Positions 3,001 to 6,000 of a stretch of DNA of 45,553 nucleotides are shown one piece after another. The stretch is taken from contig JBFWJG010000014.1 of NCBI GenBank assembly GCA_050253335.1, positions 1-45,553 of the forward strand. Reading direction: 5' to 3'. The first letter of the stretch is position 1, and every line of letters starts with the position of its first letter. The position numbers were made by a program. Source of the DNA: Deferribacterales bacterium (lineage in GTDB: Bacteria; Chrysiogenota; Deferribacteres; Deferribacterales; Geovibrionaceae).

Positions 3001-6000
3001 GCGCCGCAGTTCGGCGACGACCAGTCAGAGCCCGTTAAAAAGGCAAGCTGGGCTGTTGCTCACCCCGTACAGAAATGTACTTTCTGCTGGGACAGGCTTG
3101 ACGACGGTCTTGCTCCCTCCTGCGTTGCATCATGCCCGCAGAGAGCCCTTGACTTCGGCACAGTGGAAGAGATCAGCGCGAAATACCCCACGGCAGTGAG
3201 AACTGCGGTAGGTATGCCTGATTCATCAAAAGACTCCAACGGTAACACGCTTACCTCAGGAGATACAGTACCCTCCATTTTCTTTAAACCTAAGAACTAG
3301 GAGCCGTAACAACCAAGAAATACCGCCCTCTCACGGGGGCGGTATTTTTATTTTTAAAGCCTTGTGAAATATGGCAGTAAGTTATATTTTGTCTGCTGAG
3401 CAAAGACATTAAAAGAAGGAAATTTCATGATAACAGACATAAATGCGATGACCTTAGACTTGATTAAGAACAAAACTTTCAGGGAAGACGCCGAAAGGTA
3501 TGTGAAGCAGTACGCCGATTTTATGCAGTTTGCCGAAGATTCGGGAATCAGTGCAGACGGGGGAGCCTCCTCTGACAGCATAACCGCTGAGAGATTCTTA
3601 AAAATGAGTCGGATTAAGGGCTATAACGCAAAAAGTCTTTCTTACGGTTATCTCTCCCCCGCCTGCATTGACTGCCGAACCGGGGAAAATTCCAAGACCG
3701 TTTTTCATACACTGACATGCAACAGAGACTGCTACTTCTGCGCGAACATGAATCAGGAGCAGTATGACTATTACACGAAAAATATAAACGATGCCGAAGC
3801 TGAGCTTGACGCCTCCATGGAAGGAAAAAAGGTTTCCTCCATAGCCCTTACCGGCGGCGAGCCCCTTCTTCTGCCTGAGAAGGCTGTAAATTTTTTCAGG
3901 CACGCATCTGAAAAATATCCCGATGCCCATAAGCGTCTTTACACCAACGGGGATCTGCTTACGGACGAACTTGCGCAGCAGCTTGCCTCTGCGGGGCTGA
4001 ATGAAATACGCATAAGCGTCAAGATGGACAAGGACGGCTACCCCGCTGAAACACTTGAGAAACTGAAAACAGCAAGAAAGCACATACCCGCCGTGATGGT
4101 GGAGATGCCTGTTGTTCCCGGCACTCTGGAACATATGAAGGATCTGCTCCTTAAAATGGACGAAATAGGGTGTGACGGCATAAATATACTTGAATTCCTC
4201 TATCCGTGGACGGATGCTGAGGAATACAAAAAACTTGGATTTAAAATAAAGCAGCGCCCCTACCGTGTGCTGTATTCATACACATACTCCGGCGGTCTGC
4301 CCATAGCCGGAAGCGAGGAGGAATGCCTTCAGCTTCTTGAGTTCGCCCTTGAAAAAGAGCTGAAGCTGGGCGTTCATTACTGCTCGCTGGAAAACAAGCT
4401 CACTTCGCAGATTTACTTCCAGAACTCCTCCACTAAGCTGATGCCTTTTGAAGTGATGTCCGGAAAGGACTTCTTCATAAAGATTGCCCGTGTTTATGGC
4501 AGCAGCGCGGGAAAGGTGCAGAAGTTTCTCTCGAAAAAGGGTGTTCCCTTTCAGCGTATTGCGGGTTCGGATGCCCTTGAGTTCCATCCCAGATATCTTT
4601 CCGAGCTGAAAGGTGTGGATGAAGCGGCGCTGACATACAACATAGTGGAGTCTGACGGAAAGTCCTCCTTTATGCGTGAACTTAAAATAGATTTGGTTAA
4701 TCCGGCTTTATTTGACTATGATGAAGATATATGAGGTGACGTTATGAACGTTAATGAGATATGTGAAACACACAAAGGAAGAGATGTAACTTTCAATATT
4801 TTTTCAAGGATATTTATCGATGTGCCGGACGATTTTTCCGACAGATTGACTGCGGATACATGCGCTTATCTTCTCTCCATTGCGGAGGCCTCTGAAAACG
4901 GTGATCTTAAAAAAGGCGCTCAGATTCTCAATACGCTTCTGCCCGCCGATAAGTCAGGGATGGAGGGCTGGTTTGCCTCAAGCAGGCTGGACAGGGCAAA
5001 GGACTTCACTTTCCTTTTCGTTCTGGGACAGGGCTCCGTCTCTGTTTATGAATCTGTCTACCGCTCCCCTGAGAAGCTGATCAAGCAGGAGCCCTGGAGC
5101 GAGGTCAAGGCGGCTTACGCTGTGAACGGATTCAAAAAAGCCGAAGGCAATAAAACCATAGAGGATCATATCTCCCTTGAGCTTCAGTTTATGGGACTGC
5201 TCAGCAAAAAAGCCGCAGAACTCATTTCTGGCGAGGATTTTGACGGAGCCGAGGCCAAGCTGAAAGCACAGAAAGACTTTTACGACAATCACATCATAAA
5301 ATGGATTCCTGATTTCTGCGATCAGGTGATATCAAAAAGCGAAAGGCTCCACTCACAGTTTTACGTTGCGTACGCATACCTTCTGAAAGGCTTTCTCACT
5401 GAGGATATGCTGTTTCTGGAAGATTTGCTCGGAGAATAGATTCCATGCGTGTTGTGGAAGGTGTATTTGAAAAACTTTCCGAATATTTCGTCATAAACAG
5501 TGCTCTTTGCGTGCGGGTGCGCCATAAAAACGCCTCCTGCACCGCCTGCACTGATGTATGCCCCGCCGGAGCTGTGAAAATCACCCGTGCGGGGGGCAAG
5601 GTGCTTGTGGACTGGTCGGTCTGCACTGACTGCGGTAAATGTGTAAATGTCTGCATGAACAGTGTATTTACCCTCCGCAGGGCGGACACGGCACGCATAA
5701 GCGCATCCGCCGCGGAACAGATCAAGGCTGAGGGCAGTGTTAGATATTCCTGCGCCCGTTCGAAATCAGCCGAAAACACAGCCAAGGTTTCCGCTCTGGC
5801 TTATATCAGCCGCAGGCAGATAATCAAAGCCGCGTCCGAAGGGGCAAAAAGGCAGGAGTTCATCCACGGAGACTGTTCAGTCTGTCCGGCGGGAGGCTGC
5901 ATTGACATGCTGACCGGCGAGCTTGAAGCCGCTTCGAAGATTCTGGAACTCTGCGGAAAAGAACCTGCATTCCTCATAAGAAAACCGGACGAAGCGCCTC

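Follow-up and report, generated by a model that had tools for sequence, protein, structure and literature searches.

A radical SAM protein that travels with one branch of DmsA-like molybdoenzymes is a probable maturation factor

Why does a radical SAM gene lie between the structural genes and the chaperone gene of a DMSO-reductase-like operon, and what might its product do there? The question is raised by a contig of a Deferribacterales bacterium (assembly GCA_050253335.1, contig JBFWJG010000014.1), of which we analysed the whole stretch of 45,553 nucleotides, here called the window. Relatives that bear names put the genome close to Geovibrio within this order. A first-pass annotation had placed a radical SAM ORF at 3427-4734, between dmsB and dmsD and followed by a polyferredoxin, and this placement is borne out. 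The operon runs from a dmsA with its 5' end missing through dmsB, the radical SAM gene and dmsD to the polyferredoxin gene, with the following features:

3..2669, + strand: DmsA-like Mo-bisPGD catalytic subunit, 5' end missing (PF00384, PF01568; TIGR02166 at 449.7 bits, cut-off 777.7)
114..125, + strand: C38-x-R-C41 of DmsA, the fourth FS0 Cys and the extra Cys (alignment of 107 scored sequences)
405..407, + strand: Ser135 of DmsA (D-Y-S), predicted Mo ligand, aligned to the Ser column of E. coli-type DmsA
2683..3300, + strand: DmsB iron-sulfur subunit (TIGR02951 at 167.3 bits, cut-off 214.1; Fer4_11)
3316..3349, + strand: strong terminator-like hairpin (15 pairs and a T run) between structural and accessory genes, a consensus match only
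3427..4734, + strand: radical SAM protein of the dms-linked clade, 435 aa, no signal peptide seen (model pLDDT 91)
3664..3675, + strand: extra C80xxC83, candidate auxiliary metal ligands (76/76 dms-clade and 32/32 sister-clade proteins)
3718..3741, + strand: C98xxxC102xxC105, the SAM-cluster motif, invariant in the alignments
4375..4383, + strand: H317-Y-C319 (HYCSLENK), third candidate auxiliary Cys (C319 in 74/76 dms-clade and 32/32 sister-clade proteins)
4426..4731, + strand: C-terminal domain, residues 334-435 (pLDDT 95 folded alone; no clear structural match)
4744..5439, + strand: DmsD/TorD chaperone (PF02613 at 88.2 bits), fused to the radical SAM protein in some relatives
5445..6470, + strand: polyferredoxin with three CxxCxxCxxxC motifs and further Cys (domain search)

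Because the contig starts inside dmsA, the window carries neither the Tat signal nor the FS0 motif nor anything upstream, and whether the operon is 'anchor-less' has to be judged from other loci. The orthologous DmsA in the complete genome of a congener (L231) has 971 aa, a Tat signal and the motif TPHNCGGRC. The Mo-ligand role of Ser135 we take from established knowledge. Terminator-like sites number 11, against 7.6 ± 2.4 in shuffled sequence. Short contigs from metatranscriptome libraries match the gene end and the dmsD junction at 99-100%, which is no proof of transcription, and just 5-7% of the sequence words are shared by RNA runs. Elsewhere in the window (9120-14870), genes for a TonB-dependent receptor and ABC proteins come after that for a 1068-aa lipoprotein-like TPR protein.

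The protein clearly belongs to the radical SAM superfamily: it has the CxxxCxxC and GGE motifs, a partial TIM barrel, and a PF04055 score of 68.7 bits for a cut-off of 29.5. Assigning it to a family is harder. As the first-pass annotation had stated, no NCBIfam model comes near its cut-off, the best being HxsC (E 1e-13, 50.9 against 267.9 bits); the cut-offs of the curated radical SAM families MoaA, HxsC, viperin, PFL-AE and TIGR04311 all lie far above the scores of the window protein, and among 47 family members scanned the best NCBIfam E-value is only 1e-14. Homologues at E ≤ 1e-3 make up 1358 of 8000 scored proteins. That the family has no curated name holds in the sense that no curated model fits, but a loose JGI product name exists, 'pyruvate formate-lyase activating enzyme-like uncharacterized protein', for a group that we take to be COG2108/MJ0021-like. 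The N-terminal CxxC and C-terminal [HN]xC, presumably the defining features of that family, are both present. The likeness to COG2108 comes from product names and Atlas look-alikes, as the scanned Pfam copy gives no match to a COG or PF26257 model; in the Atlas, archaeal PF26257 (DUF8061) clusters adjoin the family with a score of 0.96.

In a tree of 50%-cluster representatives, the dms-linked clade stands apart from its sister clades. The additional CxxC and HYC motifs singled out earlier are indeed invariant or nearly so (C80, C83 and C319 in 76, 76 and 74 of 76 proteins), but the CxxC and [HN]xC also occur in 32 of 32 sister-clade proteins and are therefore no marker of the dms-linked clade. 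The nine sister-clade loci examined contain no dms genes. The same genome encodes a second, distant radical SAM paralogue on contig C78 (G000:C78:4888-6240, L081; 29% identity over 248 aa), a sister-clade protein with no conserved neighbourhood and 2982 relatives at E ≤ 1e-10 among 7999 scored, of which the named ones are mostly from Desulfobacterota-type genera. In one protein (P0209, 738 aa) a sister-clade domain is fused to a second radical SAM domain.

The structural model (pLDDT 91) begins with a helical N-terminal part and continues into the partial barrel, which bears a Tyr-rich insertion; after an extra strand with C319 at its end comes a C-terminal domain of about 100 residues whose best fold match is UreE at Z 4.8; Foldseek returns nothing for this domain at E ≤ 0.001. 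PDB sequence matches are confined to the core, as had been noted before. NifB gives the best structural match (Z 16.4, rmsd 3.2, 213 aligned), in a tie with viperin, which scores within 1 Z unit of it; PFL-activase is not far off. The Cys of the NifB HPC motif pairs with C80 at low confidence, while the C-terminal HCxxC K-cluster cysteines of NifB do not align. From conservation and topology we infer that C80, C83 and C319 together make up an auxiliary three-Cys site on the barrel's open side, where they would bind an auxiliary cluster. Sites of this type in other radical SAM enzymes serve in sulfur donation or substrate binding.

To describe the gene's surroundings we grouped the ORFs from 80 genome loci, the best of 463 confirmed ones, into clusters named by Pfam, and took 80 metagenome loci as a second sample. 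The earlier count of 70 of 80 loci with DmsA or DmsD is reproduced, and 77 of the 80 hold some gene of the module; the commonest direct neighbour is the polyferredoxin (42/80 genome loci). Linkage with dms genes is seen in several phyla and in no fewer than five gene orders. Of the 34 metagenome loci of at least 9 kb, 25 contain DmsA, DmsD or the polyferredoxin. The description of the family as a fixed accessory of these operons is too strong, since 9 of these 34 loci have no dms gene and one genus, g14 (four genomes), keeps enzymes of the type described below without the radical SAM gene. Two orphan copies (L284, L046) adjoin moaC/moaA/moeA, and in family f7 the radical SAM-polyferredoxin pair is located apart from dms genes.

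Nor does 'anchor-less' describe the family, which usually accompanies a normal membrane anchor: DmsC (PF04976) directly follows dmsAB in 48 of the 59 DmsA-bearing genome loci, the DmsC cluster is present in 50 of all 80, and among the 30 metagenome loci that carry DmsA, DmsC or NrfD is found in 19. Seven of the 11 DmsA loci without an adjoining DmsC have the arrangement typical of Deferribacterales. Upstream of the operon, the complete congener genome encodes a 489-aa protein without a Pfam match, placed by the Atlas among outer-membrane barrels, together with a cytochrome that has six CxxCH motifs, and the signal of its DmsA ends in a lipobox-like YGC. Judged from this gene content, the Deferribacterales lineage probably replaces DmsC by a porin-cytochrome route. 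Repeated cassettes of a beta-barrel-like gene of about 480 aa (no Pfam; 'alginate export domain' in the Atlas), a hexahaem cytochrome c and DmsAB with Tat and lipobox-like signals occur at L231:11794-13736, L244, L360, L361, L428 and L429, with three or more in tandem in G389; such a cassette may serve to conduct electrons across the outer membrane to an extracellular reductase. Chloroflexota loci show two further regularities. Six of them (L012, L032, L036, L041, L048, L058) have, upstream of dmsA, a second DmsC-like gene, perhaps for a sensor subunit, with a histidine kinase gene on one side and a response regulator gene on the other, and downstream genes for tatC, an NTPase, an ABC/ECF transporter, a methyltransferase, FmdE, moaA, a moaD-like protein and TauE recur in L008-L066.

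Which DmsA enzymes does the gene follow? In radical SAM loci the FS0 motif of DmsA is nearly always H-N-C-G-G-R-C, against V-N-C-G-S-R-C in the E. coli type. Specifically, FS0 position 3 is His in 88 of 107 DmsA from gene-bearing contexts and Val in 43 of 44 E. coli-type DmsA. The window DmsA fails the canonical DmsA/YnfE test, the TIGR02166 score given above being that of a 5'-truncated protein, and its orthologues have TPHNCGGRC rather than CxVNCGSRC; some shorter client DmsA of the HNC type do exceed the TIGR02166 cut-off. The same genome also has an E. coli-type dmsABD operon (contig C52), which contains no radical SAM gene.

We searched genome samples both for the gene and for the DNA pattern of the HNCG(G/A)RC motif. 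Among 112 genomes of one class of Bacillota (that of G002, with a Desulfosporosinus locus), 30 have the motif and the same 30 an intact gene, 81 have neither, and a 31st gene-bearing genome (G267) retains a truncated relic of the gene beside a truncated dmsC. Among 251 genomes of the order of G001 (Enterobacterales, with a Providencia locus), 50 carry a canonical DmsA above the cut-off and two the radical SAM gene; the true motif occurs solely in these two, a third pattern match being due to chance. Pattern matches in G074 and G436 were likewise checked and dropped as chance. In the class of G003 (151 genomes), two have both gene and motif, and three more have true motif matches: in one the contig ends at the expected gene site, in one dmsA is frameshifted, and one is unexplained. 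The 68 genomes of the window's own phylum divide into 27 with both, 27 with neither, 9 with the gene only and 5 with the motif only, counting dms-clade matches alone, so that four genomes with only the sister gene are scored as lacking it. The nine gene-only cases comprise four motif variants missed by the pattern, two contigs cut inside or before dmsA, and three genomes that are 57-88% complete. Fisher p-values overstate the gene-motif association in these counts, because these taxa were among those whose loci supplied the motif, and related genomes are not independent.

A single radical SAM copy can coexist with up to 12 copies of the motif (G262), often far apart, which argues that the protein acts in trans. 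In g14 (G411-G414, 93-98% complete) the gene has been cleanly deleted from its syntenic site while the polyferredoxin and several HNC-type enzymes are kept, G280 has a CWHNCGGGC-type dmsABCD and no radical SAM gene, and none was found in G569, which has a PAHNC enzyme; with g14 and G280, the gene is not in every genome that has the client type. Conversely, it shares operons with His-less enzymes (SNC in L077, GNC in L072) and with apparently Asp-ligated, NrfD-linked enzymes (L301, L309, L329, L348). The FS0 His, as read from these sequences, marks the main client group, but with His kept where the gene is gone and absent from some co-operonic enzymes it is neither necessary nor sufficient. When the DmsA columns were scanned for a residue that clients have and that both E. 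coli-type and g14 enzymes lack, the candidates G195, R159 and S752 (window numbering) came up, none of them perfect.

The FS0 alignment contains a second regularity. Of 119 DmsA sequences 107 could be scored, and 79 have the first Cys and no extra Cys, 27 the extra Cys and no first Cys, with a single exception. Wherever the first FS0 Cys is lost, the extra Cys replaces a Gly (RxCxRC), and this has happened in two separate parts of the tree. The paired loss and gain suggests an undescribed FS0 ligation; examples are at window positions 114-125 and in L231, L015:11477-13849, L117 and L123. A separate observation is an expanded clade of very long DmsA-like enzymes (1050-1290 aa) in family f7 (G411-G414 and G420; L451-L469).

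Fusions and mobile copies bear more directly on function. The radical SAM protein is fused to a C-terminal DmsD domain in three 50%-cluster representatives (P0136, P0151, P0165; PF02613 at 67-73 bits) and in a metagenome ORF (L273), all within one clade and thus probably from a single event; a word search for longer fused forms, a weak method, gave none at E ≤ 1e-20. Of 5426 E. coli genomes, three carry the gene. We inspected one of them (L084, NZ_CP081698.1), where it lies in a chromosomal polyferredoxin-rSAM-dmsD-dmsABC module flanked by two IS26. This module also has a LysR gene between the IS26 copies, and its radical SAM gene is 100% identical to that of a Citrobacter locus (L079). A plasmid collection gave no match to the gene. 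The description of the protein as a dedicated maturation factor thus gains support from the DmsD fusion, the co-occurrence with one type of DmsA, the mobile module and the joint decay with dmsC, but the dependence is not strict, as g14 shows. The orphan copies next to Moco genes and the structural match to NifB, itself a cofactor maturase, point the same way.

We consider it likely that the protein is a cytoplasmic radical SAM maturase for one branch of Tat-exported DMSO-reductase-family enzymes. The direct observations behind this are genetic linkage, the DmsD fusion, clade specificity, one copy for many clients, an intact SAM-cluster motif and three extra invariant Cys, and the link to maturation is strong. 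The clients would be mostly Ser-ligated enzymes with the FS0 motif x-x-H-N-C-G-G-R-C. The radical SAM enzyme would act on the catalytic-subunit precursor while DmsD holds it and before Tat export, with the polyferredoxin as the likely donor of electrons or Fe-S and with one enzyme serving all client paralogues in trans. According to the accessible part of a review (PMC10609526), FS0 is inserted before Mo-bisPGD on the chaperone-held precursor, ahead of Tat export. It is reasonable to suppose that the protein is catalytic, and we infer that its target is most likely the FS0/Mo-bisPGD site of the DmsD-held precursor, either the cofactor itself or the protein near FS0. Given a maturase, tailoring of the cofactor, for example by sulfur insertion or a pterin or nucleotide change, has close to an even chance; covalent modification of the catalytic subunit close to FS0 is a serious possibility, if one we would rather bet against; and a non-catalytic loading role seems unlikely. 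A complex prediction of the protein with DmsD scored 0.00 and is uninformative either way.

Several other explanations have to be weighed against this. Within the maturase reading, the target could be specifically the FS0 His, crosslinked, methylated or similarly changed, as the His/Val division at FS0 position 3 and the match of gene and motif in 30 of 30 genomes of one class might suggest; we hold this subcase to be rather improbable, because g14 retains the His without the gene and adjacent clients have SNC, GNC, DC or Asp-type motifs. An optional enzyme that enhances or repairs the Fe-S cluster or cofactor, useful without being required, would account for the clean loss in g14, the absence in G280 and the orphan copies beside Moco genes. 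Its task might be, for example, to restore a sulfido ligand, which is oxygen-labile and is reported for some DMSO-reductase-family enzymes (accessible part of PMC13653126). The gene is nevertheless kept in every motif-bearing genome of one class, which a needed step fits better, and in E. coli it sits inside a compact mobile module although the host has its own Fe-S and Moco systems, so we judge an optional role to be unlikely.

A role in the pathway rather than in assembly, in which the protein synthesises, activates or clears away a compound that the reductase consumes or produces, is in keeping with structural neighbours that include the small-molecule enzymes viperin, BlsE and AbmM, and with sister clades that lack dms genes. 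It sits badly with the fusion to a chaperone, with one copy for many paralogues of very different active-site loops, and with clients that are Tat-exported while the radical SAM protein has no signal peptide, and we regard it as very unlikely. Chance inheritance of a housekeeping COG2108-like gene along with the operon might be suspected from the phylogenetic clumping of the loci, but the linkage persists across several gene orders and phyla, in trans, in fusion and in joint decay, which leaves hitch-hiking with hardly any probability.

Returning to the maturase reading, the co-inheritance, loss and movement of the gene with one DMSO-reductase-like branch, together with the chaperone fusion, suggests a chemical finishing step that the E. 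coli enzyme can dispense with. We tentatively propose, at a little under even chances, a widespread branch of enzymes in which Mo-bisPGD or a residue at the FS0 site is chemically modified by a radical SAM enzyme on the chaperone-held precursor; the taxa concerned are Bacillota, Chloroflexota, Deferribacterota, some Enterobacterales and gut metagenomes. As far as is known, a chaperone, Fe-S insertion and, in some cases, a sulfurtransferase suffice to mature Mo-bisPGD enzymes. If the proposal is true, the DMSO-reductase family would have its first radical step of maturation downstream of Moco synthesis, and failed or inactive heterologous expression of such enzymes would be accounted for. Hundreds of uncharacterised respiratory reductases from anaerobes of gut and sediment would then carry a cofactor form, or a protein modification, that has yet to be described, and an unassigned branch of radical SAM proteins would have its first functional lead. 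Because a compact module occurs naturally in E. coli, the role can be tested at once in a laboratory strain.

The radical SAM partner of this large, non-E. coli DMSO-reductase branch is real and apparently undescribed. Our literature search, with most subscription journals and supplements outside its range, turned up neither an account of the family nor any radical SAM protein described as maturing DmsA-like enzymes. In the accessible texts of the review PMC10609526 and the NarJ-subfamily survey PMC4464133 the word 'radical' is absent, as is 'fusion' from that of the survey, and in the accessible text of PMC6650914 the term is confined to a reference.

How does the system compare with known ones? 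The established Mo-bisPGD maturation factors, the DmsD/TorD/NarJ chaperones and FdhD, belong to the same step and the same operons as the radical SAM protein, but neither is a radical enzyme. The electron route of the Deferribacterales version has what we take to be a parallel in the extracellular DMSO reductase DmsEFAB of Shewanella: a multihaem cytochrome and a beta-barrel-like gene precede a DmsA with Tat and lipobox-like signals, and DmsC is missing. It differs in that its cytochrome is hexahaem rather than decahaem, its barrel has no Pfam match, and its DmsA is of the HNC type. With COG2108/MJ0021-like proteins the family shares the JGI product name, which is also that of the sister clade, and the SPxCxxC, CxxxCxxC, ExP, NLxE and [HN]YCS motifs, whereas the dms-linked clade has its own context and NxNQ, NLLEFxxP, YxYxGGLP and HYCSLENK signatures. 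NifB, a radical SAM maturase for the FeMo-cofactor, is the top structural match (model 77-328 on chain 16-272), but at 24% identity, in the core only, and there is no nif context around the radical SAM gene. The closest precedents by name are two predicted maturases, TIGR04317 (tungsten cofactor oxidoreductase radical SAM maturase) and TIGR04311 (putative metalloenzyme maturase). The family belongs to neither, TIGR04317 reaching E 1.4e-8 at best and in 1 of 47 proteins, and TIGR04311, by description a SPASM family, scoring 35.3 bits against a cut-off of 400 with no SPASM domain found here. Since NCBIfam thus already holds predicted radical SAM maturases for other metal and pterin enzymes, the kind of protein that we propose is a known one.
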